A stretch of 64,000 bases of DNA from Fidelibacterota bacterium (GTDB lineage: Bacteria; Fidelibacterota; UBA2242): contig JADHWC010000002.1 in the NCBI GenBank assembly GCA_016783665.1, positions 2,371-66,370 on the forward strand, in the 5' to 3' direction. Each line of letters starts with the position of its first letter. Position 1 is the stretch's first letter. A model generated the notes under the pieces. That model did not search any database and was not told the DNA's origin. It worked only from the letters and a program-made list of their open reading frames with translations. Positions 1 through 48,535 of the stretch are shown piece by piece. A program made the translations under genes and the position numbers.

Positions 1-380
1 ATCAATATACGCAATGATTTTATACAGCTTTTATAACTCCAAATCATTTTCACATCACAATTTTCAAAACCATTAACATAATTTAGATAAGAATCATTAA
101 TCAGTTGTGGTTCAATTTTTACAATGTACTCACTTACAGTAATACAATATTTTAAAACATAGAATAATAGACTTGTGTACTTGGTAGTAGAGATTATTCT
201 TACTACAGATTCGATTCCCCAAGTTGTTGTATAATCCAAGACTCGCTTTAAGAATTGAATTAGATGCTGTTTTGTTGTTTTCCCACTCTGATGACAAAAA
301 ACAATATATGTTAGTAAATCAATAATACAGGAATCCATAAGCATCATTTTAGTAATTCCCAGCCTATCGCACTCATCCAT
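1..380 (-). CDS. Hypothetical protein. Its 3' end runs off the window start. AT-rich. Absent from the supplied ORF track.
   Basis: I translated the minus strand by hand. ATG is at 380..378 and the frame stays open to position 1 (more than 126 codons, MDECDRLGITKMMLMDSCIIDLL...). No homolog recognised. Confidence 0.3.
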   Translation of the reverse strand, partial: MDECDRLGITKMMLMDSCIIDLLTYIVFCHQSGKTTKQHLIQFLKRVLDYTTTWGIESVVRIISTTKYTSLLFYVLKYCITVSEYIVKIEPQLINDSYLNYVNGFENCDVKMIWSYKSCIKSLRIL

Positions 381-403
381 TTTTGATAAAATAAAATTCT
401 CTG

Positions 404-935
404 CTAAATGGGAATAATCTGGATATTTGAAATCAAAAACAAGGCAGTCGAATATATCATCATTATTCGATATGACAGAATCATCAGAAAAAAAATCACT
501 TTTTCTATAATATTGATATTTTAAAATAACGAAAAACGAAAGTTCACACTTTATTCTTGGTAGTATTTGAAATATGTAAAACTTAATCTCATTTATTTCA
601 ATTTTCCCAAGTATGTGATATAGTGTAGTGACTAATGATGAATCCGATTCAAAATCAGAAAAACACAAATTTCTCAAATATAAAATTATCGTTGATGTTT
701 CGCCTTCAATTAAATTACGATATTCAGTTTTTAACTGATTAATGTCAATAAGATACTCGTTTATTTTTCCTTCGATGTAATCAAACATAAACTTATCATC
801 ATTTTTAGAAATATCCCAGAAATCAGAAATACTAAGGTATGTTTTAAAGTTTTTTAATTTATACGATGGAAGGCTGTCTTTGTGTTTTAATACTTCATTA
901 TCATTAAGATTATATAATGGTAGTATTTCGCTCAT
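404..935 (-). CDS. Hypothetical protein of 177 aa. AT-rich. Absent from the supplied ORF track.
   Basis: Minus-strand ORF found by hand. ATG is at 935..933 (MSEILPLYNLNDNEVLKHKDSLPSYKL...) and the TAG stop at 406..404. Checked codon by codon with no internal stop. It contains an A8 homopolymer at 487-494. Confidence 0.35.
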
Positions 936-999
936 TGCTAAATCCTTTTGTTTAGCCCTTTGTTAAAATTCTATGTTACAATCTCTCATGAATGCCATA

Positions 1000-1293
1000 T
1001 TATAATTTGTTAAAATGGCCACATTGTAGACAGTAATATCCGCCTTTAGATTTATCGGTTTCGGTTACTATTTGTGACTTTTGACATTGAAGACAGCTCG
1101 ATCTATTTGCCTTATAACTTGATTGAGTAGAACTATGATTTGATTCGTTTGTGTCCAGTGATGTATTTTTTACAAGTTTTTCCAAAAGTTCGGTGATCTT
1201 ATTTATTTTAAAATACCAGCACCAAAATTCCCTTAATAAAAGAAAAACGACTACAATGATAGCTATGAAAATGATTGAACTTACAGTTTCCAT
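1000..1293 (-). CDS. Small single-pass membrane protein with a C-terminal C4 zinc ribbon (paralog A').
   Basis: Short N-terminus, then a hydrophobic helix (IIFIAIIVVVFLLL), then positive residues (REFWCWYFKINK), which places the C-terminus in the cytoplasm. CxxC...CxxC (CLQCQK...CLQCGH) at the C-terminus. Shares 26 identical residues (LREFWCWYFKINKITELLEKLVKNTS) with ORF 2883..3155. Confidence 0.55.
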   Translation of the reverse strand: METVSSIIFIAIIVVVFLLLREFWCWYFKINKITELLEKLVKNTSLDTNESNHSSTQSSYKANRSSCLQCQKSQIVTETDKSKGGYYCLQCGHFNKL

Positions 1294-1331
1294 CTTGTCT
1301 CCAATTCTATATAAATGTTAAAAACCTTTGT

Positions 1332-1880
1332 TCAGGCAATTATTAATAAGATGCTTACCAATGTTACAACAATCGAATAAATCATAAAGTAGGTTTGAGC
1401 AAGTGCAATTTTTTCTAATGCAACCGTTTGTCTTTCGTTTAGAGATTGCTCAGTAATATTTTCTAATTTCTCTTGGGTGTCTGCAACCGTAATTGTTTCA
1501 GTTTTCTCTTGGGGCACGATTAATAATGAATCACTATATACGGATTCTGTGCCGCCAAATAATTTTTCAAAACCTTTTTTGTCATAGACACTCAAATTCT
1601 TTTTTGAGCAAATACGTCTAATATCGCTTAGGGGTATGCGAAGTTCGTCTCCGGTTGAATATGAAATAAAAGTAATATACTGACCTTGATATGCTACAAA
1701 CCGGCCTTCATACTCAGAACCATTTACCATAAAAATTTTAATGTAGTTTTCACCGGGTGAATATTTATTAATCAATTCAGCGGACTGCTCAAAGTATCTT
1801 TTCTTTGGTAACTGCGAATAGGACACTCTGAACAATCCAATAAGCAAACATATAATGACAATTTTTTTCATTTTACACAC
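1332..1880 (-). CDS. Secreted or lipoprotein-like protein with a C-terminal hydrophobic anchor. Function unknown.
   Basis: N-terminal signal peptide (MCKMKKIVIICLLIGLF) and a C-terminal hydrophobic helix (YFMIYSIVVTLVSILLIIA). No recognisable catalytic motif. Confidence 0.45.
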   Translation of the reverse strand: MCKMKKIVIICLLIGLFRVSYSQLPKKRYFEQSAELINKYSPGENYIKIFMVNGSEYEGRFVAYQGQYITFISYSTGDELRIPLSDIRRICSKKNLSVYDKKGFEKLFGGTESVYSDSLLIVPQEKTETITVADTQEKLENITEQSLNERQTVALEKIALAQTYFMIYSIVVTLVSILLIIA

Positions 1881-2016
1881 TCCAATATAAAAAGTTTAGC
1901 CGGGACACTCCCACCTATAGCATCCCGGCCTTTATGCCCCGTCGTTCTGCCTGTCCGGCAACCGCTCAGCCACTCCGAACGGAAAACCATTATCTTTTTG
2001 TTTTTTCTGCCTCAGT

Positions 2017-2517
2017 TCAATAAGCTTTATATCCATAAGATTGACTGTATCTGGCTACTTTTTTCCCCGACCTGTTGTCATAAAACGTAATTCTTCCAGT
2101 CGATCCGGCCCTGTCACAGATTTTTGCTAATGTGATCCCAATTCCAACTTTTGTATCATAATCTAATGAATTCCAGATGTAAACATCGATCATCGCTTCG
2201 TTTTGATCAATGTCTAATTTTTTTAAAAGTCCCGAATCATACAATACTTGAAGGTCATCGTTATTGGTTTGGGTGGAATACTTTAGACTTGTGTTTGTTT
2301 TAAAGGTTGTTGAAGGCTCATAAATCCAGCCTTCAACAGTAACCTTAACCCATTTCCCCTCTTTTTGAATCTTTTTTACTTCGGTTCCTTTTAATAGTAC
2401 ACCGATTTTATCTCCATTGGGACTTGACCTAAAATTTTCGCTGTCAGCAATTACTTTACCTGTTTGACTGTATATAATGGAAAAATTAAGAATGAGTATT
2501 AATAATATGTTTTTCAT
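2017..2517 (-). CDS. Secreted protein with a bacterial SH3 (SH3b)-like domain.
   Basis: Signal peptide (MKNILLILILNFSIIYS). The segment SPNGDKIGVLLKGTEVKKIQKEGKWVKVTVEGWIY resembles an SH3_3 fold. Confidence 0.45.
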   Translation of the reverse strand: MKNILLILILNFSIIYSQTGKVIADSENFRSSPNGDKIGVLLKGTEVKKIQKEGKWVKVTVEGWIYEPSTTFKTNTSLKYSTQTNNDDLQVLYDSGLLKKLDIDQNEAMIDVYIWNSLDYDTKVGIGITLAKICDRAGSTGRITFYDNRSGKKVARYSQSYGYKAY

Positions 2518-2537
2518 TTTACCTCCAGATTAGAATT

Positions 2538-2804
2538 TTATACTTCTTTCCCGCAGTATCGACAGACCTTTGCCTCTGATTTAATTAACTCAGCGCAATA
2601 TGGACACTTTTTATTTTCACCACTATCAATCTTTTCTTTTTCAATTTTTTTCTCATCCGGTTTAGAAACTAAAACAATGATAAACCCAATTAACGGACTG
2701 AGAGCTACCGATATTAAAAAATATCCAAAACCAGACTTTCCTTTACTTGAAGCATACATTCCCACAAGAACCGCTAAAATTAACCAGGTGATAATAATTT
2801 CCAT
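2538..2804 (-). CDS. Small two-TM membrane protein with a C-terminal zinc ribbon.
   Basis: Two hydrophobic helices, then a Lys/Glu-rich linker, then CPYC...CRYC. Confidence 0.5.
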   Translation of the reverse strand: MEIIITWLILAVLVGMYASSKGKSGFGYFLISVALSPLIGFIIVLVSKPDEKKIEKEKIDSGENKKCPYCAELIKSEAKVCRYCGKEV

Positions 2805-2882
2805 GATTCCCTCCGATTGTTATGTTTTAAAATACTTTGCCGGGACACGTATCGCCCTATCCGGTCAATATATCAATAATAT

Positions 2883-3155
2883 TTACTTTAGTTTATATCC
2901 GCAATGTTCACATTCAAAAGTATCACCTTGATTGTATTTATTGCACTCAGGACATTTCCATCTGACTGATGTTGATGTATTTTTTACAAGTTTTTCCAAA
3001 AGTTCGGTGATTTTGTTTATCTTGAAATACCAGCACCAAAATTCTCTTAAAAACAGAAAAACAACTAAAATGAATGCGATTAATAGTATTGCGTTTACAC
3101 CTTGAGAAATCGAAAAACCGCCCATATTACCTCCATTTAAGTTTAGCCGGGACAC
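2883..3155 (-). CDS. Small single-pass membrane protein with a C-terminal C4 zinc ribbon (paralog A).
   Basis: TM helix AILLIAFILVVFLFL, then the same 26-aa juxtamembrane block as 1000..1293, then CPEC...CEHC. A GGAGG ribosome-binding site precedes the ATG. Confidence 0.55.
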   Translation of the reverse strand: MSRLNLNGGNMGGFSISQGVNAILLIAFILVVFLFLREFWCWYFKINKITELLEKLVKNTSTSVRWKCPECNKYNQGDTFECEHCGYKLK

Positions 3156-3378
3156 TTTCCACTAAAAACATCCCTGCCTTTTTTGCCCCACCGTAAAGAT
3201 ATATTTTCAATTGGTTTAATACTAATCAGTTTCTTTGGAAGCCATACTTTGCGACCAGTATTATCAATCTGAACCGCTTTATCGGTTTCCGTTAAAATGA
3301 TTGTCTCAATCTCAGTACGATTATTGATTTTTAATATTTGATCGATCTAGGTCATTTAAATAGAATAGGGCTGATAAA

Positions 3379-4296
3379 TTAAATATATAGCTGAATAATA
3401 TCGTCGATAAAAGTTCTTTTCTTCGCACTAATAATACTAACATTAATGTAAAAATCTTCATCCCACAGAATTTTTTCTATTATTTGTTCGATATATTTCC
3501 ATTTTTCATTAGAAGAATATGAAGATTTATATATTTTATGTAAATCAATTCTATCCATTTGAAATAATTCATCTAAATCACTCACAGGATGTCCTGCTAA
3601 TGTAATCCCATAAAGACCTTTTAAATAATTAAAATCATCTTCGGAGCTATATTTTTTTATATATTTGATATATTCAGGTAATTCTTCTTTTAATTCTTTT
3701 AATTCTCTAAACATATATTCTTTATTAGGAACATTTTTTAAGTCTTTCCTTTTATATCTTATATACAATTCTTTATATTCAAAGTCATTATAATCAATAG
3801 AGTAGACCATATCGGTTGTTTCAAATACTTTTATACTATCTTCCTTATAATAAATTTCAACCAATATCTTAATATTTTTTAATTGGTATTCACTATCATT
3901 GACTAATTTTATTTTTATATCATCAACTCTATAACTAGATAAAAATAAATTTTTATATTCCTTTAACTCAACACTTACTTTATCTAATGGAATTTTTTGG
4001 TTGTTAAAGTATATTCCAACAATTATGATAATCAACAACGGCGGTAGTATATATAACGAGATTTTTAATAATCTTTTCCCTACTTTAATAAACATATTTT
4101 TAATTTTTTTAAAACTACTTCTTGAGAATAAATAGACTTCAATTAAAAAGATACCTAATAAATATATTAACCATGTAAAGGAAGAATATTCAAAATCATC
4201 CCATTCACTTCCTAGAATTCCTAACACTAAAACAAGTAGAAACAAGGGTGCTATAATTCCAGTAATTTTAGTAATAGGAGAGAAATTATTTGCCAT
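3379..4296 (-). CDS. Membrane protein of 305 aa (about 3 N-terminal TM helices plus a Lys/Tyr/Glu-rich soluble domain). Function unknown. AT-rich.
   Basis: Hydrophobic N-terminal segments. Strong AT bias like the rest of the 1-4300 island. No conserved motif recognised. Confidence 0.45.
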   Translation of the reverse strand: MANNFSPITKITGIIAPLFLLVLVLGILGSEWDDFEYSSFTWLIYLLGIFLIEVYLFSRSSFKKIKNMFIKVGKRLLKISLYILPPLLIIIIVGIYFNNQKIPLDKVSVELKEYKNLFLSSYRVDDIKIKLVNDSEYQLKNIKILVEIYYKEDSIKVFETTDMVYSIDYNDFEYKELYIRYKRKDLKNVPNKEYMFRELKELKEELPEYIKYIKKYSSEDDFNYLKGLYGITLAGHPVSDLDELFQMDRIDLHKIYKSSYSSNEKWKYIEQIIEKILWDEDFYINVSIISAKKRTFIDDIIQLYI

Positions 4297-5213
4297 AATA
4301 ATATTTCCTACTATAATATATAGATAACAAATCCCACTTCAAAATAATTTTTTCCCGTTTGGTGTAAGTGTGGGTATAAATGAATATCAAGGGGGGTGCC
4401 CCCCGCAGGTGGGGGGTGTGCCCGGTTTCAAAAAACTATTTCTTATTTGATTATACAGCATATTATCTTTAACACCGTGTGCGTGAAAGCCCCCACAATA
4501 TTCCAGTAGTCATTCATTTCAATTTATATATAGGGCATTAGGTATCTTTAAATGGTAGTAGAGGCAATAATATTTGTTGATAGAATGTTAGATTTGAATA
4601 CTACCTGATTGAAATATCGGCATATTATAATGAAAATAAAAACAGTAAGAGTCCAATTGAATAACTGCAAATAGAGGAAATACTTTCAGAAATTGATTTC
4701 TCGTCGAGAAAAGGATTGACAGAATGACAAAATTAAGCCCGTATACCCGTTCAGTATACCCCGGAATTGATTTTCTCGTCGGGAAATATTTCCGGTATCC
4801 TAATTCCCAAGCTGGATACGGGGGTTCTATTCCCCTCACCCGCTCAAAGTCGTAATTGGATAACTTACATTTCTTACGTCATTGCAGGTTTGGCATTCAT
4901 CATAAATAGCTCGTTCCCAAGCCCCAGCTTGGGAATGCCAGCGAAAGACGTGATGGTTATTTGGAACCTGCCTTATGAAATAGTTTAAATCTTTGAAAGA
5001 GAAAACTAATTTAAAGTTTATTCACAGGGTAAATCGAATTGAACATTGGAATTTTATAGGAGACTACTTATAGATAACTCTTTCCAGGAGTAGAGCATAT
5101 ATTTACTATTGAAGTTGTATATGATAAATGGCGAAATTAGGCACGCGATTTTTAAATAATATCAGAAGAAAAACAGAGCAAAATAAATATCCATAAACTC
5201 TAACAATATATAC

Positions 5214-6500
5214 ATGATAAAAATTATCTCAGTAAAGAATGGAAGCAGGGCCGATGTTGCCGGTATTTGTGCTAACGATTATTTAATCTCGCTCAACGGT
5301 CATGAAATTAACGATCTCTTGGATTACCATTTCTGCCAGGCTGAAGAAAATCTGACTATTACATTTAGCCGTAATAAATCACAACAACAGGTATTGATAC
5401 AAAAAGCATTCGATGAGGACCTGGGAATTGAAGTGGATGGTTTGCGTGTTAGAGCCTGTTCGAATAATTGTATATTCTGCTTTATCAAACAGAATCCTCC
5501 GGGAATGAGGCAAGCGATATATTTCTGTGATGAAGATTATCGTTATTCATTTCTCTACGGGAGTTACATTACATTAACCGATCTAAATGATAAGGAACTT
5601 TACCGTATCGTCGAGCAGCGACTATCACCGTTATATATTTCGGTTCATGCCACCGAGCCGGATGTTAGAAAATCAATATTTCGGTTCAGATTCGATGATC
5701 GTTTAATGGAGAAAATAGATTATTTACACCGGAACCGGATAGAACTACATACTCAGATTGTGCTTATGCCCGGGATGAACGACGGGGAAATTCTTGAGAA
5801 AACGATTACCGATCTATATAGATTCAGGGATTCTATAAAAACACTGGCGCTTGTGCCGGTGGGGTTGACAAGACATCGAAAAAAATTGCCGCACTTAAAT
5901 CCTGTGACGAAAGAATTGGCAAGTGAGCTGGTGTATCGCTCCGAATATTGGAACCGTCGATATAGGAACAATGAAGGCGATCCGTTTGTCTACTTATCTG
6001 ATGAATTTTATCTGCTGGCGAACCAGCCGTTTCCAATCACCGGTCACTATGGTCCCTATTACCAGGTTGAGAATGGTGTGGGATTATGCCAGCAACTGAT
6101 TGATTCTGTGGAACAACAGCGTCAGGATTTCCCGAAAACTTTGTCAAAACCAAAGAGGATTGGGTTTATCACGAGCAAATTGGCGGAACCGGTACTGTGT
6201 GATTATCTGTTGCCTTATTTGAATATGATCGCTAATCTTACGGTTGAGACACTGACGGTGACGAATCACTTTTTCGGCGAAACAGTTACAGTATCAGGGC
6301 TATTGACCGGGCAGGATATTGTTGAACAATTTCCTAAATCGTTAAAATATGATTTGATCTTTTTACCACCGAGGTGTATAAATGAAGACGGGTTGCTTTT
6401 GGATGATATGACTCCGGAGGATATAGGAAAAGCGGTCGGGAGCCCGGTTTTAGTTGGAAGTGATGATATAGTCGAGATGGTAACATATGGCGAAATGTGA
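5214..6500 (+). CDS. PDZ domain-containing radical SAM protein (DUF512-type).
   Basis: N-terminal PDZ-like segment. CSNNCIFCF (CxxxCxxC) radical-SAM cluster motif. Its end overlaps the der start. Confidence 0.65.
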   Translation: MIKIISVKNGSRADVAGICANDYLISLNGHEINDLLDYHFCQAEENLTITFSRNKSQQQVLIQKAFDEDLGIEVDGLRVRACSNNCIFCFIKQNPPGMRQAIYFCDEDYRYSFLYGSYITLTDLNDKELYRIVEQRLSPLYISVHATEPDVRKSIFRFRFDDRLMEKIDYLHRNRIELHTQIVLMPGMNDGEILEKTITDLYRFRDSIKTLALVPVGLTRHRKKLPHLNPVTKELASELVYRSEYWNRRYRNNEGDPFVYLSDEFYLLANQPFPITGHYGPYYQVENGVGLCQQLIDSVEQQRQDFPKTLSKPKRIGFITSKLAEPVLCDYLLPYLNMIANLTVETLTVTNHFFGETVTVSGLLTGQDIVEQFPKSLKYDLIFLPPRCINEDGLLLDDMTPEDIGKAVGSPVLVGSDDIVEMVTYGEM

Positions 6501-10128: not shown

Positions 10129-10144
10129 TATTTTTAAAAAAAAT

Positions 10145-10306
10145 ATCCTGCAATGGCAGGACGTTTTTAGAACCGTAATCATCACGGTGGGCACCTCTCG
10201 AACGGCTCAAGTTTCCTCGACATGGAGGCATGCTTTCCACGCCCGAAGCCCGGCTCCCATATTTTAGGTGTTGGTTCTAAAAATATAGGTTACACCATTG
10301 CAGGAT
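10145..10306. ncRNA. Candidate structured RNA or bidirectional terminator element with nested long inverted repeats between convergent genes.
   Basis: A perfect 12-bp inverted repeat ATCCTGCAATGG (10145-10156) pairs with CCATTGCAGGAT (10295-10306). An inner pair TTTTAGAACC (10165-10174) pairs with GGTTCTAAAA (10273-10282). Together they enclose about 100 nt of GC-rich sequence. The 5'-proximal hairpin CCTGCAATGGCAGG followed by TTTTT also looks like an intrinsic terminator for yigZ. Confidence 0.3.
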
Positions 10307-10399
10307 AAATTTCAAAGATCTCTACTTTCAATATACTTACCATAGACGTAATGGTCAAGGCATTTTAGTATAAATAGTTAAAATATTTCGGGAATGTAT

Positions 10400-16792: not shown

Positions 16793-16809
16793 ATTAGATA
16801 TAAGAATTT

Positions 16810-17183
16810 GAAGTTAGTCGGTAAGCCGAATTCTGTTTCCGGCAGCTGCCGGACGGCAGTCATTTATCTACATACAGCCTTACAACTGATGTTAAGCGAT
16901 CTACCCGAGAATTTAACGGAACGGGCAATTCCAATTCTCTGCTTGATCTTGCTCCAGGTGGGGTTTACCCTGCCCCCGACATTGCTGTCGGGGCGGTGCG
17001 CTCTTACTTTAATCCCGCTTAATTGCAGGACGCACCATTTCACCCTTGACCGCCAAAGGCGGACGGTATTGTTTCTGTGGCACTTTCCTTCCCGTTGCCG
17101 GGACTCCGTGTTACGAAGCACCCTGCCCTGCGGAGTTCGGACTTTCCTCCCCGATAAAAATTGGGGCGACTGCCTGACTAACT
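16810..17183 (-). ncRNA. rnpB: RNase P RNA, bacterial type A.
   Basis: The minus strand reads GAAGUUAGUCAGGCAGUCGCC...GGAAAGUCCG...ACAGAAA...AGGGUGAAAUGGUGCG...GUAAGAGCGCACC...GGAAACAGAAUUCGGCUUACCGACUAACUUC. P1 pairs the 5' and 3' ends. The universally conserved P4 and J11/12 motifs are present. Confidence 0.85.
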
Positions 17184-17984
17184 TCAGATAAATTCCTCCT
17201 CATTAATTGAACGGATTTCACTGGCTTGTTCGTCCCAGTACAGCATCCGTCCACAAAATTCACAACGTATCGGATTCGCTCCGGAGCGAATCTCTACAAC
17301 TTTTTGCGGTGGGACAATTGTGTGACAGCCCCCGCAAGAAACCTGAGCTGGAATATATTCAATATTACCCTTTTTATCTACTTTTTCTTCGAAAACTTGG
17401 CGAATGGGTACAATTGCTAAACCATTCCTGGCTTTGGATACACGCTCATATTCCCTTATATATCGTAGTGAAATAAATTTTACGACAGCTTCCCGGTTCT
17501 TCATTAGTTTTTCTTGAACATCGTTGGTTTTTTCGTTGGTTTTTTCCAACTGTTCACGCCGGAATTTTATTTCATTTAATTTATCCTTCAATGTCAGATC
17601 TTTACCTTTGATTGCTTCTTTGAGATTTTCCATCTCTTCATTTAGTTCGAGGATTTTATATTCTGCCGTGTCGATATTCTGGCGAACAGTTTCAATTTCA
17701 GATGTTAGCGCATCATACTCTTTATTTGATGTAACAAGGTATAGTTGATCCTGGTATCTTTTCAAATGTTCTTTGTTATCCTTGATCTGTCCCTCGAGGT
17801 CTTTTGTTTCCAGAATGATTTCCTTTTCGCGGCTGCGATCGTTTTCAAGCTCCCTTTCCAGGTTGGCAATATTTTTTTCAAGTGTTTCAACAATCTGAGG
17901 AAGATCACCTTTTAATTCGTCTATCTTTAGTAGCTCGTTATCAATCTTTTGTAGTTTTATAAGAAATTTCAAGTCTTTGAACAT
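17184..17984 (-). CDS. Coiled-coil protein with a C-terminal C4 zinc ribbon (COG1579-like).
   Basis: Long heptad-rich Glu/Lys/Leu region, then CGGCHTIVP...CEFCGRMLY. Confidence 0.65.
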   Translation of the reverse strand: MFKDLKFLIKLQKIDNELLKIDELKGDLPQIVETLEKNIANLERELENDRSREKEIILETKDLEGQIKDNKEHLKRYQDQLYLVTSNKEYDALTSEIETVRQNIDTAEYKILELNEEMENLKEAIKGKDLTLKDKLNEIKFRREQLEKTNEKTNDVQEKLMKNREAVVKFISLRYIREYERVSKARNGLAIVPIRQVFEEKVDKKGNIEYIPAQVSCGGCHTIVPPQKVVEIRSGANPIRCEFCGRMLYWDEQASEIRSINEEEFI

Positions 17985-18092
17985 TTATCCTCCGTTCTAT
18001 TCAAAAATGAAAATTGCACCTTCCTGGGTGCAATTTAAATCTTGATATATGGGTTGAGCTTTCTGTAATGCTTTCAAAACCTTACCTTTCTG

Positions 18093-18166
18093 TGGGCGAT
18101 ATCCGATTTGAACGGATGACCTTCCCGATGTGAACGGGACACTCTGACCAGCTGAGCTAATCGCCC
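18093..18166 (-). tRNA. tRNA-Val (anticodon CAC).
   Basis: The minus strand reads GGGCGAT TA GCTC AGCTGGTCA GAGT G TCCCG TTCACAT CGGGA AGGTC ATCCG TTCAAAT CGGAT ATCGCCC A. This gives a clean cloverleaf with a 7-bp acceptor stem, anticodon loop TTCACAT and T-loop TTCAAAT. CCA is not encoded. Confidence 0.8.
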
Positions 18167-26883: not shown

Positions 26884-27294
26884 TTATTGGCGGTTTTCGG
26901 GCAATTTACAGCACATTGGCAGCTTTGCATAAGCATCAAGGTTGGCAGGTGTCTCGTTAGCCTGATATCCCAGATCGGAAATGGCTTTTTCAATCTGTTT
27001 CAGATTGAGTTGAGCCGGATTGTAGTTTATATGTCCCATTTTGTCTTCGATATCCACATTGACAGATACAATACCGTCCATTTTTCCCAGACCAGTTTCA
27101 ATAGTGCTCTTGCACATGCCGCACTGAACGGTGGGCAGCTTTACCATGGCATGGGTTTGATTTTCACCATGTCCCATCATCATCTGGGGCTGAGATTTGC
27201 CAGTGTCATCCGTTTTTTCTTTGCCGCCGCATGCGACGATTCCAACGATGAGAAAAGCGATCAACGCAAAACCGATGATTCTTTTGGTGTTCAT
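26884..27294 (-). CDS. Heavy-metal-associated (HMA) domain lipoprotein.
   Basis: Lipobox (LIVGIVACGG). HMA-like CGMCKST metal-binding motif. Confidence 0.6.
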   Translation of the reverse strand: MNTKRIIGFALIAFLIVGIVACGGKEKTDDTGKSQPQMMMGHGENQTHAMVKLPTVQCGMCKSTIETGLGKMDGIVSVNVDIEDKMGHINYNPAQLNLKQIEKAISDLGYQANETPANLDAYAKLPMCCKLPENRQ

Positions 27295-30200
27295 GATAAC
27301 TCCTTGTTTTGATTTTTAAATTGTCTTTCCTTAATAATTGTATACAGAACCGGCACGACAAATGTTGTGATGACGCCGATGAACATTCCGCCAAAGGAGG
27401 GGATTGCCATGGGTACCATGATGTCGGAGCCTCGGCCGGTGGAGGTGAGAACCGGCAGCAAGGCCAAAACCGTTGTGCTGATGGTCATCATTGCCGGGCG
27501 GATTCTTCGCGAACCGGCCGCGACCGTGGCCTGGCGAATCTCGCGAATGGTCTCAGGTTTATGACGCGCAAAACTCTGTTCGAGATAGGTGCTGATGATG
27601 ACGCCGTCATCGCTGGCGATGCCGAACAGTGCCAGAAAACCGACCCAGACCGCCACACTGAGATTGATCGGGTGGACCTGGAACATCTCCCGGAGGTTGA
27701 CCCCGGCGAAACTGAAGTTGAGAAACCAGTCCTGACTGTAGAACCAGAGCATCAGAAAACCGCCCGCCCAGGAGACGATGATCCCGGAAAAAACGATTAA
27801 GGTCACCGGCACTTTTTTGAACTGGAAATAGAGGATCAGAAAAATAACTGCCAGAGACAGTGGCAGAATTACGCGCAGTCGCTTGACGGCCCGAATCTGG
27901 TTCTCATAACTCCCGGCGAAGCGGTAACTAACTCCGGCCGGAATGACCAGCTGACCGGATTCGATCTTCGTTTTTAGGTAGCGCTGGGCCTGTTCGACCA
28001 CGTCCACCTCCGCCCAGTCATCCTGTTTATCAAACAGTACATAGCCGATCAGGAAAGTGTCTTCGCTTTTGATGACCTGGGGACCGCGGATATAATTGAT
28101 GGTGGCTAATTGTCCCAGCGGAATCTGGGTGCCATTCGGTGCGGCGACGAGAATATCTTCCAGGGATTCGATATTGTCCCGCAGTTCCCGCATATAGCGC
28201 ACCCGAACCGGATAGCGTTCACGACCTTCAACTGTTGTGGTAATCTGCTTACCACCGATGGCGACTTCGATGACATCCTGAACCTGACGCAACGGAATCT
28301 GGTAGCGCGCAATCGCCTTGCGGTCGATCTCGATTTCCAGGTAAGGTTTTCCGACGATGCGATCCGCAAAAACAGCGGACGCTTTCACCGCAGGAACCTC
28401 TTTTAGATAATGCTCCAGCTGCATGCCGACTTTTTCGATCGTTTCCAGATCGGGACCTTTGACCTTAATCCCCATCGGCGCGCGCATACCGCTCTGCAGC
28501 ATGACAATCCTGGCGGAAATCGGTTGCAGTTTCGGCGCGGAAGTTGTTCCCGGAATCCGGGCGACTTTGACCAGTTCATCCCAGATATCCTGGTTGCTGC
28601 GAATATGGTCACGCCACTGGCGGAACGGTTTGCCCCGTTTGGACGGGATCAGGTTTCCGGCGTTATCCCGTTGAAAACTGCCGTCGGGATTCACGGCAAA
28701 TTTCAGTCGCTTTCCGTTCTTGTCGGTGATATATTCGGATTTGTAATTGATTACTGTTTCGATCATGGAAATCGGCGCCGGGTCCAGCGGCGTGTCCGCG
28801 CGTCCCAGTTTTCCGACGACCTGTTCCACCTCGGGAACCGAATAGAGCGCTTTGTCCAGCTTGGCTAAAACGTCCAGCGCCTCTTCCATTCCGGCGTGGG
28901 GCATGGTGGTAGGCATATAGAGAAACGAGCCTTCATCCAGTGATGGCATAAACTCTTTGCCCATACCCGGGAAGCGGTGATTCCAGTTGGAATAGACAAC
29001 AGTCTTTTTTATAAAATCCGGCATGAATCCAAATATCTTTCCGAAGCCGATCCAACTCATCATACCCAGGATGACGATCGATGTGGGCACACTCAGCATT
29101 GTTTTTTTATGGTCCAGCGCCCAGGTGAGCAGACGCGGGTAGATTTTTGTGTAACCGCTCAAAAGCCCCATGACGGTCCCGATGACCATGGCGGCGAAAA
29201 GGAAATTCAGGATGAATCCTTTGTCGTAACCGAGCGGCGACCATGTGGACGCCAGGATGCTGAGCACTAACGCCACGATGGTCCAGTTGATGATTTTCGG
29301 CAGGCGGGTCTGAATTTTTGGCGGCAGATAATGGGATGTTATTCTGAAAATACCGACGAAAGCCACAATGGTTCCAAGCCACCACTTGAAGGTAAATGCC
29401 AGGATCAGCCCAAAAATAATCAAACCTACACTGGTAAAATGCCGAAACCCGTGTGATCGCTTTTTTCCCCGGTAGAGCAGATGAGCGACCGGCGGCAGGA
29501 TAGTCAATGCCACGATAATTGAGGCAATCAGCGCCAGACTTTTGGTGTAAGCCAGGGGTTTGAAGAGTTTTCCTTCGGCTGCCTGCATGGTGAACACCGG
29601 CAGGAAAGAGACAATGGTGGTCGAAACGGCGGTCAGCACTGCGCCGCCGACTTCAGAAACAGCCCGGAAGAGGACATCCCGCCTGTTTTCATTTTCATCG
29701 GCTTCGTCGAGATGTTTTAACATATTTTCCGAAACCACGATGCCCATGTCCACAATCGTACCGATGGCGATTGCAATTCCAGAGAGCGCCACCACGTTGG
29801 CGTCCACGTGAAAGAGCTTCATACCGATAAACACCATCAAAACTGTGATTGGCAACAAACCACTGATCAGAAGGGATGTCTTGAGATGCATGACCATTAA
29901 AATGATGACAATAATCGTGATCAGGATTTCATCTCTCAGAGCATGGTTCAATGTGCCGAGGGTCTCGTAGATCAGACCGGTTCGATCGTAAAAGGGAACG
30001 ATCGTTACCTGGGACTTGGTTCCATCCGGCAAGATCTTAGACGGCAAGCCGGGACTGATTTCGATGATTTTCTTTTTGAGCCGGTTAATCGTCGCCAGCG
30101 GATTTTCACCATAGCGAACGACCACGACACCACCTACGACTTCGGCGCCTTCCTTGTCGAGTGCGCCGCGCCGCACCGCCGGACCGAGAACGACGTTGGC

Positions 30201-31067
30201 CACATCCTTGATATAGATCGGGACGTTGTCGGTGGTTTTTACCACTGTGAACTCGATATCTTGCAGGGTTTTGATGAAACCGATTCCGCGGATGACATAC
30301 TCCACCCGGTTGACTTCAATTGTCCGGGCCCCGACATCGATATTAGCATTTCGAACGGCGTTGAAAATATTCTGGAGTTTGACACCATGAGCCCGTATCG
30401 CGGCGGGATCGACATCGATCTGGTATTCCTTGACGTAGCCGCCGATCGAAGCGACTTCCGAGACGCCGTCGGTGGATTGCACAGCATAGCGCACATACCA
30501 ATCCTGAATGGAGCGCAACTCCTGTAAGTCCCAGCCGCCGGTCGGGTTACCGTCCGGGTCACGTCCTTCCAGCGTGTACCAGAACACCTGCCCCAAAGCT
30601 GTGGCATCAGGTCCCAGGATCGAACTGACACCTTCAGGAAGGGTGCCTGGCGGTAGGGAGTTCAGTTTTTCCAGAACCCGGCTGCGGCTCCAGTAAAATT
30701 CAGCTTTTTCTTTAAAGATGATATAGATTGTAGAAAATCCGAACATGGAGTAAGATCGCACAGTTTTGACTTCCGGAATGCCGAGCAATGCCACGGTCAA
30801 CGGATAACTGATCTGATCTTCCACATCCTGAGGCGAGCGGCCCATCCATTTGGTGAACACGATCTGCTGGTTTTCGCCGATATCGGGAATGGCATCGACG
30901 GGCACCGGGCTGCGATCAAGCCCGGGAATCTGCCAGTCAAAGGGCGCCACTAAAATTCCCCAGGTAATCAATCCGGCAAGGATCAGGAAGACGATGAGTT
31001 TATTGTCTATAGTATAGGCAATGATTTTGTCAAGTAGTGATAAGCGTTCCTTATTCATGGCTGTCAT
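27291..31067 (-). CDS. cusA: CusA/CzcA family heavy-metal efflux RND transporter.
   Basis: 1258 aa, 12-TM RND topology. Highly conserved HME-RND C-terminus. Confidence 0.9.
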   Translation of the reverse strand: MTAMNKERLSLLDKIIAYTIDNKLIVFLILAGLITWGILVAPFDWQIPGLDRSPVPVDAIPDIGENQQIVFTKWMGRSPQDVEDQISYPLTVALLGIPEVKTVRSYSMFGFSTIYIIFKEKAEFYWSRSRVLEKLNSLPPGTLPEGVSSILGPDATALGQVFWYTLEGRDPDGNPTGGWDLQELRSIQDWYVRYAVQSTDGVSEVASIGGYVKEYQIDVDPAAIRAHGVKLQNIFNAVRNANIDVGARTIEVNRVEYVIRGIGFIKTLQDIEFTVVKTTDNVPIYIKDVANVVLGPAVRRGALDKEGAEVVGGVVVVRYGENPLATINRLKKKIIEISPGLPSKILPDGTKSQVTIVPFYDRTGLIYETLGTLNHALRDEILITIIVIILMVMHLKTSLLISGLLPITVLMVFIGMKLFHVDANVVALSGIAIAIGTIVDMGIVVSENMLKHLDEADENENRRDVLFRAVSEVGGAVLTAVSTTIVSFLPVFTMQAAEGKLFKPLAYTKSLALIASIIVALTILPPVAHLLYRGKKRSHGFRHFTSVGLIIFGLILAFTFKWWLGTIVAFVGIFRITSHYLPPKIQTRLPKIINWTIVALVLSILASTWSPLGYDKGFILNFLFAAMVIGTVMGLLSGYTKIYPRLLTWALDHKKTMLSVPTSIVILGMMSWIGFGKIFGFMPDFIKKTVVYSNWNHRFPGMGKEFMPSLDEGSFLYMPTTMPHAGMEEALDVLAKLDKALYSVPEVEQVVGKLGRADTPLDPAPISMIETVINYKSEYITDKNGKRLKFAVNPDGSFQRDNAGNLIPSKRGKPFRQWRDHIRSNQDIWDELVKVARIPGTTSAPKLQPISARIVMLQSGMRAPMGIKVKGPDLETIEKVGMQLEHYLKEVPAVKASAVFADRIVGKPYLEIEIDRKAIARYQIPLRQVQDVIEVAIGGKQITTTVEGRERYPVRVRYMRELRDNIESLEDILVAAPNGTQIPLGQLATINYIRGPQVIKSEDTFLIGYVLFDKQDDWAEVDVVEQAQRYLKTKIESGQLVIPAGVSYRFAGSYENQIRAVKRLRVILPLSLAVIFLILYFQFKKVPVTLIVFSGIIVSWAGGFLMLWFYSQDWFLNFSFAGVNLREMFQVHPINLSVAVWVGFLALFGIASDDGVIISTYLEQSFARHKPETIREIRQATVAAGSRRIRPAMMTISTTVLALLPVLTSTGRGSDIMVPMAIPSFGGMFIGVITTFVVPVLYTIIKERQFKNQNKELS

Positions 31068-48310: not shown

Positions 48311-48461
48311 GGTAATTCCCTCCGAAGATATGTTTACTTTTCATTGTTCAATATATCACAAAATAATAAATATGGCAATATTTTGGTGATGGTTTCGAAA
48401 TAAATGGAAGATTATTGATGTGATGGAAATAAAAAAGCTTCCATTATCGGAGATAACTTTG

Positions 48462-48535
48462 TAGCGGTGCAGGGACTCGAACCCCGGACACGCGGATTAT
48501 GATTCCGCTGCTCTAACCAACTGAGCTACACCGCC
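48462..48535 (-). tRNA. tRNA-Met (anticodon CAT).
   Basis: The minus strand reads GGCGGTG TA GCTC AGTTGGTTA GAGC A GCGGA ATCATAA TCCGC GTGTC CGGGG TTCGAGT CCCTG CACCGCT A. Clean cloverleaf, G1-U72 wobble, CAU anticodon. Elongator Met, initiator and Ile2(k2C) cannot be distinguished by eye. Confidence 0.75.

Follow-up and report, generated by a model that had tools for sequence, protein, structure and literature searches.

We analysed a 64-kb stretch of the genome of a Fidelibacterota bacterium (assembly GCA_016783665.1, contig JADHWC010000002.1, forward-strand positions 2,371 to 66,370), which we refer to as the window, and focused on a GC-rich stem-loop that recurs at three gene junctions of an AT-rich island at its left end. 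The three stem-loops belong to one small family, and the best-preserved form of this family is the last part of a ~150-nucleotide (nt) leader. Here, we describe the locus, compare it with its relatives and with the int-alpA RNA, and weigh what the stem-loops may do.

Three copies of one stem-loop lie between the genes of an AT-rich island

The GC content is 27-35% at positions 1-5000 and ~41% elsewhere in the window, which agrees with the AT-rich island noted in the initial annotation. To the left of a tRNA-Gly fragment, every island gene lies on the minus strand, and the products are small proteins of membrane, zinc-ribbon or SH3 type without an informative family; to its right, housekeeping genes follow. 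ARAGORN does not call positions 4804-4851 as a full tRNA, and this fragment is the right-hand boundary or an attachment-site (att) remnant of the island, which extends past the window's left edge (locus L018). From right to left, the features that matter here, with copies 1, 2 and 3 of the stem-loop named A1, A2 and A3, are:

4804-4851, plus strand: 3' 48 nt of a tRNA-Gly gene (T arm and acceptor 3' strand), recognised by blastn to annotated tRNA-Gly genes
3146-3356, minus strand: pseudogene of a 68-amino-acid (aa) open reading frame (ORF), aligned to the intact ORF in locus L160
3128-3212, minus strand: A3 (covariance model R1; homology to locus L026 and to the leader hairpin of loci L161 and L155)
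2883-3125, minus strand: geneA, an 80-aa membrane protein with a C-terminal zinc ribbon (ORF list, Pfam zinc-ribbon, homologues P0001-P0005)
2818-2874, minus strand: A2, a short form (covariance model R1; RNA fold, z = -2.0; orthologues in L161 and L155)
2804-2538, minus strand: geneB, transmembrane segment plus Zn_ribbon_3 (ORF list, Pfam)
2517-2017, minus strand: geneC, SH3_3 lipoprotein-like (ORF list, Pfam)
1878-1946, minus strand: A1 (covariance model R1, RNA fold, homology to L026, orthologue in locus L174)
1871-1332, minus strand: geneD (ORF list)
1293-1000, minus strand: geneA', paralogue of geneA (ORF list, self-comparison)

Every copy sits between successive minus-strand ORFs: A3 between the pseudogene and geneA, A2 between geneA and geneB, and A1 between geneC and geneD. 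Each is followed by a module of its own, namely geneA after A3, geneB-geneC (2017-2804) after A2 and geneD-geneA' (1000-1871) after A1. In L160, geneA directly follows the intact 68-aa ORF without an A3; in the window, codon 3 of that ORF reads TAG (TGG in L160) and its 3' end, the last ~20 codons, is replaced by A3.

The motif GTGTCCCGGC(T/A)AA occurs in gene sense at 1908-1896, 2848-2836 and 3155-3143. Across the window, the exact pattern GTGTCCCGGCWAA matches solely at these sites (1896-1908, 2836-2848 and 3143-3155, all minus strand), compared with a mean of 0.01 matches in 100 dinucleotide shuffles of the window, none of which reached three; allowing two mismatches added two sites, both unrelated. 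The three copies noted at the three junctions are real, non-random and homologous. The claim that an identical 15-mer is preserved at all of them holds for A1 and A3, which have an 18-mer in common (AAGTTTAGCCGGGACACT on the plus strand) within a homology of ~55-65 nt following the pattern ACGnnGGGGCAnnAAAGGCnGGGAUG..GUGG.AGUGUCCCGGCUAAACUU, but not for A2, a shorter relative that shares with them only the 10-mer plus AA of the 3' strand and a short similar tail. Covariance model R1, built from six copies, scores A1, A2 and A3 at 70.9, 54.5 and 63.6 bits; run on the window and 16 loci, it adds none to the known copies, apart from the later-found L174 and L175.

A segmental duplication of flanking genes, raised in the initial annotation as a refuting explanation, does not account for the copies. 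The genes beside each copy differ, and the sole duplicated coding stretch, 127 nt at 85% identity between the small membrane/zinc-ribbon paralogues geneA and geneA', adjoins the copies differently. Public assemblies of the population break at this same repeat: L018 begins 95 nt upstream of geneA', and the end of L021 falls within geneD.

The stem-loops fold in the gene-sense RNA

In the minus-strand (gene-sense) transcript, the motif forms the 3' strand of a stem of 9-12 base pairs (bp) that contains G.U pairs. Downstream of the stem, an A-rich spacer leads to a clear Shine-Dalgarno (SD) sequence and to the start codon of geneD (A1), geneB (A2) or geneA (A3). The parts of the three elements are:

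A1, minus strand: G-rich block ACGACGGGGCA 1945-1935; stem 5' strand 1930-1919; loop 1918-1910; stem 3' strand 1909-1898; motif 1908-1896; AAAC spacer; U5 1893-1889; SD GGAG 1883-1880; geneD ATG 1871
A2, minus strand: stem pairs U2867-A2838, G2866-C2839, bulged A2865, C2864-G2840, C2863-G2841, G2862-C2842, G2861-C2843, bulged C2844, A2860-U2845, U2859.G2846, A2858-U2847; tail AAAGUAUUUUAAAAC; SD GGAGGG; geneB ATG 2804
A3, minus strand: upstream block UCUUUACGGUGGGGCA ~3200 to 3184; stem 5' strand 3178-3166; stem 3' strand 3157-3145; motif 3155-3143; no U tract; SD GGAGG; geneA ATG 3125

The A1 stem, GGCCGGGAUGCU/AGUGUCCCGGCU, comprises 12 bp closed by a 9-nt loop (-19.5 to -20.5 kcal/mol) and includes one basal G.U as well as neighbouring U.G and G.U pairs. 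A2 has 9-10 bp interrupted by two bulges, and A3 pairs at 12 of 13 positions with one A x G mismatch (-12.0 kcal/mol for the hairpin). Because the stems contain G.U pairs, which become A x C mismatches on the opposite strand, they form properly only in the gene-sense transcript: gene-sense RNA folds at -20.5, -14.3 and -14.3 kcal/mol for A1, A2 and A3, versus -13.2, -9.0 and -6.1 kcal/mol for the antisense RNA. The same bias is seen in L174, L026 and L161. Folded as single-stranded DNA with DNA parameters, A1 reaches -9.6/-8.0 kcal/mol (z ~ -2.3), and A2 and A3 do not surpass shuffled sequence on either strand (z +0.4 to -0.3).

RNA folding bears out the earlier view of gene-sense hairpins with a constant 3' arm. 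The arms then proposed (GCCGGGA/TCCCGGC, GCAGGGA/TCCCGGC and TTGACCGG/CCGGCAA) are correct, but the stems extend beyond them. Against shuffled sequence, the 71-nt stretch of A3 has no folding advantage (z = -0.66). The U-rich tract ascribed to copies 1 and 3 is present in A1 (AAAC-UUUUU) but not in A3, whose mismatched stem is followed by AAACUUAAAUGG; A2 has a weak run, AAAG-UAUUUU.

A separate, GC-rich imperfect hairpin lies at 1938-1990 on the minus strand, between the geneC stop and A1. It contains TGGCTGAGCGGTTG, reminiscent of a class II tRNA D arm, and is missing from L161.

Relatives place the stem-loop at the end of a promoter-proximal leader

Exact-word scans returned few true relatives. 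The 15-mer gave 17 matches in viral contigs, all of them chance matches inside coding sequence, and two longer degenerate patterns gave none there. A 17-mer gave nine matches in genome contigs, of which only L026 is genuine; among the metagenome-contig matches listed for the 15-mer, only L146 is genuine, and it is the same contig as L026, a metagenome-assembled genome (MAG) from a marine biofilm and the sole true homologue among the matches listed in these scans. Such scans are blind to variants such as that in L174 (GGCCAAAC) and so do not set how rare the element is. A1 is 93% identical to L026 6649-6702 over 48-54 nt, and A3 is 88% identical to L026 6626-6698 over 74 nt; the flanks of L026 are unrelated to those of the window, apart from a shared block, element B, described below.

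Contigs of the same strain are identical across the region and therefore uninformative. The informative loci were reached through protein homologues of geneA, geneC and geneD. L161-L164 and L155 carry the order geneA(pseudo)-A2-geneB-geneC beside tRNA-Leu or tRNA-Met, in other chromosomal neighbourhoods; the block shared with L161 (9434-10499, 95% identical, at a different chromosomal site) begins inside geneA and ends at the geneC stop codon. In L174, a geneD homologue (85% identity) located 400 nt from tRNA-Arg is preceded by an A-type leader hairpin, so that A1 plus geneD are orthologous to this pair; the homology of A1 to L174 stops just 5' of the G-rich block.

Upon comparison of L174, L026, L161 and L155, a common order became apparent: an att-like block with GGATACGG repeats, a promoter-like site, a leader of ~110-130 nt, the stem-loop, an SD and the first cargo gene. 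The att-like block (ACATGTATATTTATGTATATTTTGTCATCTGAAACCGGATACGGAA..GGATACGGA) lies at L161 9020-9440, L155 2725-3050, L174 9600-10010 and L026 6290-6730. The promoter-like sites share one geometry, TTGACA-17-TATTAT in L161 (9183-9211, 11/12 matches) and TTGCAA-17-TATTAT in L174 (9796-9824) and L026 (6514-6542). Leader and hairpin together are conserved over ~200 nt in L174 and L026, two loci with unrelated flanks. The hairpin of L161 (9312-9332; GCGGGGCG-GAAAG-CGUCCCGC, 8 bp, -15.3 kcal/mol, z = -4.5, tail AUUUUAUCAU) and that of L174 (9943-9973; 12 bp, 7-nt loop, -19.9 kcal/mol, tail CAAACUUUUU) both pass a terminator scan. A3 and L026 are homologous to the leader hairpin of L161 and L155 (p ~0.007-0.03).

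The best-preserved form of the element thus reads tRNA gene, att-like block, sigma-70-type promoter (TTGCAA or TTGACA, 17 nt, TATTAT), leader, GC-rich stem-loop, A-rich spacer plus U run, SD, and first cargo gene of an integrative-island remnant. Because the relatives share this order, the full-length element closes a promoter-proximal leader and goes with the gene downstream of it. The lack of an A3 before geneA in L160 and the orthology of A1 plus geneD with the L174 pair are in line with this. This corrects the expectation that copies sit at the 3' ends of small genes: in L174, L026, L161 and L155, no upstream ORF precedes the hairpin. In the window, the modules geneA, geneB-geneC and geneD-geneA' each retained the distal part of such a leader, which explains why the hairpins now stand between successive co-oriented genes.

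The att-like block and promoter-like site lie beside different tRNA genes (Leu, Met, Arg) in either orientation, which suggests a family of integrase-less island remnants. HTH_17 (AlpA-family) and integrase genes are present in related islands, the integrase in L166. Two further repeat structures are worth noting. In L170 (1392-4113), single-gene cassettes, including one that is a geneC homologue, are flanked by three direct repeats of 220-370 nt; these repeats cover the 5' end of a minus-strand gene together with its upstream region. In L161 (8832-8940), the space between tRNA-Cys and tRNA-Leu contains a second, partial copy of the 3' portion of tRNA-Cys, itself interrupted by an insertion.

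Pairing is kept where the motif is not

The A2 stem is maintained across three genomes. In L155, pair G2861-C2843 becomes A-U and the U.G pair becomes U-A; in L161, a shifted bulge accommodates a C-to-U change. Orthologues that alter the motif to GTGTCTCGGC, GTATCTCGGC, GCGTCCCGC or GTGTCCCGGCCAAAC still pair, and ..GGCCAAAC also occurs, so a strict motif sequence is not required, contrary to the initial annotation. The identity of the motif inside the window reflects common descent of the copies rather than such a requirement. Loops vary freely (AUAGGUGGG, CCCCCAA, UUAGUGGA). Compared with A1, the leader hairpin of L161 has lost one whole base pair (GGC-GGG/CCC-GC vs GGCCGGG/CCCGGC), and its 5-nt loop is unrelated to the 9-nt loop of A1. 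In L155, the 5' arm of the leader hairpin is deleted, leaving only short, weak alternative pairings (z = -0.35).

The stem-loops resemble the closing stem of int-alpA RNA

The int-alpA RNA motif (Rfam RF02996) was found by comparative genomics and is filed by Rfam as a small RNA (sRNA). Two related loci carry it where the window carries an A element. L160 matches RF02996 at 620-688 (43.9 bits; gathering score 35.8) right after its geneA homologue, the place of A2, and L165 matches at 620-686 (36.4 bits) after its geneC homologue, the place of A1. A hairpins and int-alpA are positionally interchangeable. In addition, the L161 island ends with the 5' half of int-alpA, 33 nt that are 100% identical to L160. 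The pattern TTGAC..CGG(G)ATAGGG in this 5' half is common to A elements and int-alpA, and A2 shares TTGAC..CGGATAGGG with it; the similarity of A2 to the int-alpA of L160 has p = 0.002.

The int-alpA of an Escherichia coli P4-like element (L173), 14 nt after the integrase stop, reads ACCGGGG-AUAG-[P2]-AAAA-[P3]-CUG-CCCCGGU-UUAUUUUUAAGG. A1 and A2 share with it a closing stem of the CCGGG(G)/(C)CCCGG kind (CCGGGG/CCCCGG in E. coli), the AUAG junction (UAG after the 5' strand of the closing stem) and a U-rich tail that runs into purine-rich AAGG/GGAG. Both precede a co-oriented gene directly. The home of int-alpA is an integrative element of the integrase type, and the A elements may have a similar setting: the window's island ends at the tRNA-Gly 3' fragment, its relatives adjoin tRNA genes, and an integrase is encoded in L166 and in the E. 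coli element, but none lies in the visible part of the island.

The differences lie in the interior. In int-alpA, closing stem P1 surrounds P2 and P3, joined by CGAAAAGCGG; A1-A3 have a simple loop of 9-17 nt instead. No three-stem junction is present: A1, A3, L026 and L174 form one 12-bp stem with a 7-9 nt loop, and A2 one of 9-10 bp. Only the minimum-energy fold of L174 contains one inner hairpin, with the upstream block CGGUGGGGGCAU pairing with GUGUCCCGGCC around it. This modelled fold has an int-alpA-like layout and hints at alternative pairing; such pairing would account for the conservation of the upstream G block in A1, A3, L026 and L174. Furthermore, int-alpA occurs once per element (a median of one place per genome in E. 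coli), whereas A hairpins occur several times per island, and we saw int-alpA also in E. coli, whereas the A elements belong to a Marinimicrobia lineage (Fibrobacteres-Chlorobi-Bacteroidetes, FCB, group). Because the A hairpins do not score with the Rfam model and lack the two inner hairpins, we regard them as related to int-alpA but reduced to its closing stem, and not as members of that family.

A proposed role as leader-type terminators or attenuators

The reading we favour, to which we assign a probability of roughly one half, is that the A elements are leader-type terminator or attenuator hairpins, related to int-alpA, that were carried along with shuffled modules. In the string of co-oriented genes, they would act as intrinsic-terminator-like attenuators or insulators that damp read-through from one acquired module into the next, and they might also shield the 3' end of the upstream message. 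Read-through could be allowed by weak termination, by an alternative fold, or by an AlpA-type antiterminator that makes RNA polymerase termination-resistant. For the alternative fold, the candidate partner of GUGUCCCGGC is the conserved upstream G-rich block ACGGUGGGGCA.

Among the functions listed in the initial annotation, terminator or attenuator fits best: the L161 and L174 orthologues that pass the terminator scan lie in promoter-proximal leaders. A1 (12 bp), L174 (12 bp) and L161 (8 bp) have what is expected of a terminator, a GC-rich stem of 5 bp or more closed by a short loop; the mismatch weakens the stem of A3. In L161, the U run follows the stem within 0-2 nt (AUUUUAUCAU), as it does in L174 by the rule of the scan, and in A1 and L026 a U5 comes after the 4-nt AAAC spacer; A2 has U4 after AAAG-UA. 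A1 and A2 look functional, and A3, because of its mismatched stem and missing U run, may be decaying.

Several observations weigh against this reading. Termination at the window hairpins is something we infer; the U run stands 4 nt from the stem in A1, A2 and L026 and is missing in A3, and by the standard of the lineage's own canonical terminators (those of dnaK and of tRNA genes in L161) the hairpins would be weak. The promoter/terminator scan called none of the three window sites. Promoter and upstream leader are missing at all three; the copies may be inert relics. Only five independent sequence contexts were found. The covariation analysis proposed in the initial annotation did yield one compensatory pair, but 157 of 500 shuffles reach as many, which is not significant, and the four long copies show no covariation. 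The similarity to int-alpA is short: most pairs other than that of A2 with L160 have p = 0.05-0.27 and are not significant by sequence alone, and RF02996 gives no match in the window at the gathering threshold, nor any at E <= 5-10 on 1-5300 or 1800-3300 or to the L174 copy. Rfam as a whole offers no family for the A elements on the island, L026 and six other loci.

Alternative explanations

The hairpins, together with int-alpA, could instead be exchange points at module boundaries, acting either as attC-like folded single strands or through homologous recombination among repeated cassettes of regulatory sequence, in the manner of promoter-early stem-loops (PeSL). We consider this unlikely, with some evidence on its side. 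Modules occur in varied combinations, at different chromosomal sites and beside different tRNAs, and homology breaks in or near the elements: A2 and the int-alpA of L160 share only the 5' half, the L161 island ends exactly with that half, and the A1-L174 homology is lost just 5' of the G-rich block. Since several such breakpoints fall inside elements, a PeSL-like role is possible, and there are precedents in a DUF1874 motif read as a possible attC analogue (PMC5737381) and in PeSL-mediated shuffling (PMC2839356). Other synteny breaks, however, miss the elements (the block shared by window and L161 runs from inside geneA to the geneC stop), and a copy is found at only three of ~6 junctions. The folding results also disfavour a DNA substrate, with A2 and A3 no better than shuffles as single-stranded DNA and G.U pairs that favour RNA. 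As to an integron attC site, the gene-sense 3' end GCTAAAC is R''-like (RYYYAAC, one mismatch), but an inverted GTTRRRY partner is missing and no R''/R' inverse core sites were found in either orientation; on the opposite strand, GTTTAGC would put the rest of the attC site inside the next gene. We rejected this identity, and with it the earlier suggestion of an integron-type cassette-boundary site, since the elements fail both the core-site and the single-stranded-DNA folding tests. The visible part of the island yielded no recombinase: none of its eight ORFs scanned with Pfam matches a recombinase family, and this part has no integrase, the island running off the window's left edge.

An origin as the terminator of an element-encoded sRNA, or as a reduced int-alpA riboregulator, seems to us just as unlikely. 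Here, a ~150-nt RNA would act in trans or be bound by a protein, and the window copies would be its 3' fragments. A promoter followed by ~120 nt and a terminator-like hairpin is indeed the architecture of an sRNA gene, the leader plus A hairpin is conserved over ~200 nt between L174 and L026 despite unrelated flanks, int-alpA itself is filed as an sRNA, and the upstream G block of L174 offers the motif an alternative outer stem. Set against this, the distance from the hairpin to the SD of a co-oriented gene is always 12-25 nt, which suits a cis-acting leader; the window copies have no RNA body, no target complementarity was found, and only two independent leader sequences are available.

A hybrid of RNA and DNA roles, which we rate a shade lower and regard as doubtful, would make A hairpins and int-alpA two forms of one widespread 'module junction' element: as RNA, a switchable terminator in which ACGGUGGGGCA and the 5' arm GCCGGGAUGC compete for GUGUCCCGGC, and as DNA, a preferred crossover point for swapping single-gene modules between islands. 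If true, islands would have an integron-like cassette economy that works with neither attC nor IntI.

There is also a small chance that the copies are inert remnants of leaders, brought along by illegitimate recombination and now functionless in this genome. The broken pair and missing U run of A3, the lack of promoter and leader body in the window and the pseudogenised neighbouring genes would all fit. Yet A1 is 93% identical to L026 and close to L174 while the flanking non-coding DNA cannot be aligned, and the A2 stem is kept across three genomes.

A coding relic or leader peptide, with the motif encoding the C-terminal ..VPAK(L/Y)F of a small ORF, is very improbable. Such a frame is open through the element in A1 (1990-1868, 40 aa), L026 and L174 (58-63 aa); its stop overlaps the geneD start as ATGA in the window and in L174, and the A1/A2 differences GCT/GCA and AAA/AAG are synonymous in it. 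However, the ORFs of L026 and L174 start inside the promoter spacer and -10 box without a preceding SD, the L026-L174 substitutions fall 10/5/6 on codon positions 1/2/3 with no third-position bias, A3 is frameshifted, A2 has no start codon, VP becomes IS in L155, and Pfam finds nothing. A remnant of a hexapeptide acyltransferase C-terminus (..AIVGSVPAKLF) was rejected for want of Pfam support; the likeness comes from chance matches to GVPAK-coding sequence (L033, L072).

A DNA-level signal, that is a promoter or protein-binding operator upstream of each module, is as improbable: the sequence conserved 15-40 nt upstream of each start codon and the better conservation of its 3' half in the window would suit it, but the three sites have no sigma-70-like or -33/-7-like hexamer pair, orthologues alter the motif while keeping the pairing, and the SD, only 12-25 nt downstream, is too close for a promoter plus leader to fit in between. 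Sigma-54, extracytoplasmic function (ECF) or FCB-type promoters were discarded, with no consistent hexamers by inspection and none in the scan. We also discarded a miniature inverted-repeat transposable element (MITE), since the ends CTTTACGGTGGGG and GTCCCGGCTAAAC are not inverted repeats and the flanks show no target-site duplication, and a repetitive extragenic palindromic (REP) or MITE family, given just three copies in 64 kb, all in the island, rather than many dispersed ones.

Other features of the island and the window

Two further sites of the island lie between geneA and the tRNA-Gly fragment. They are:

4346-4403, minus strand: element B, a conserved non-coding block (GGGGGGCACCCCCC hairpin plus UUGAUAUUCAUUUAUACCCACACUUACACC) upstream of a 305-aa ORF
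4690-4712 and 4763-4786: direct repeat GAAATTGATTTCTCGTCGAGAAA / GGAATTGATTTTCTCGTCGGGAAA, each copy partly palindromic, between element B and the tRNA-Gly fragment

Element B is 83-89% identical to L026 6913-6969, on the otherwise unrelated MAG contig, and is terminator-like by the scan; a shorter stretch resembling it, TTTATAGCCACACTT, follows a tRNA terminator in L155. GGTATAC/GGATACC motifs lie near the direct repeat, and together with it they could be candidate recombinase arm-type sites. About 60 nt beyond the tRNA-Gly fragment, at 4908-4940, a perfect hairpin (TTCCCAAGC-CCCA-GCTTGGGAA) resembles the tRNA-Gly anticodon arm; its sequence is present in two tandem copies in L170 (6751-6793).

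In a blastn comparison of the island with phages and plasmids, only the tRNA-Gly fragment matched, and geneC and geneD protein scans of viral sequences returned nothing. A match to geneC at 99% identity is labelled Candidatus Marinimicrobia. Elsewhere in the window, 27000-31000 has 49-54% GC in surroundings of ~41%, and RNase P RNA class A (16806-17185), 6S RNA (10141-10309), tRNA-Val (18092-18166) and tRNA-Met (48461-48535) are ordinary chromosomal features, all on the minus strand.

Significance and comparison with known systems

The interpretation that fits best is a reduced, lineage-specific version of the int-alpA-type leader hairpin, which module shuffling distributed through a tRNA-linked island. 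As such, it is useful for annotation and extends a known motif modestly, with no new system or machinery. If the reading is true, int-alpA, so far without an assigned function, gains a plausible role as the terminator-type closing stem in leaders of cargo genes, and both it and a stripped-down derivative would be present in a largely uncultured marine lineage. The signature of att-like block, conserved promoter, leader hairpin and ORFan membrane-protein genes would then serve as an annotation handle for small integrase-less island remnants beside tRNA genes in Marinimicrobia. It would also suggest how horizontally acquired single-gene modules stay transcriptionally insulated from each other.

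REP-type intercistronic hairpins stabilise upstream mRNA and number hundreds of copies genome-wide. The A elements resemble them as GC-rich hairpins between genes of one transcription unit and differ in their few copies and their confinement to the island.

A structured motif associated with DUF1874 likewise recurs in consecutive intergenic regions and was read as a possible attC analogue (PMC5737381). Like it and like attC, the A elements are imperfect hairpins that recur between co-oriented small genes without an assigned function. They differ from attC by lacking R''/R' core sites, by their RNA-type stability with G.U pairs and by belonging to the 5' side of the downstream gene; no intI was seen among the eight island ORFs scanned.

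The PeSL cassettes of T4-type phages flank small ORFan genes and form the borders of shuffled modules (PMC2839356, PMC4122927). They are short conserved units of promoter and stem-loop in variable regions, and the A hairpins, too, may mark module borders. By contrast, promoter and stem-loop are immediately joined in PeSL and ~120 nt apart in L161, L174 and L026, the window copies have no promoter-like site, and their host is a chromosomal tRNA-linked island, not a phage.

Finally, AlpA of Pseudomonas aeruginosa lets RNA polymerase bypass Rho-independent terminators in leaders (PMC7969949, PMC9371919). No AlpA-like gene or AlpA-binding element was identified in the window, and the putative likeness is loosened by the U run of the window hairpins, which is displaced or absent. 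The layout is nevertheless the same, for in L161, L174 and L026 the promoter-like site is followed by a short leader that ends in the GC-rich hairpin and its U-rich tail, ahead of the genes.

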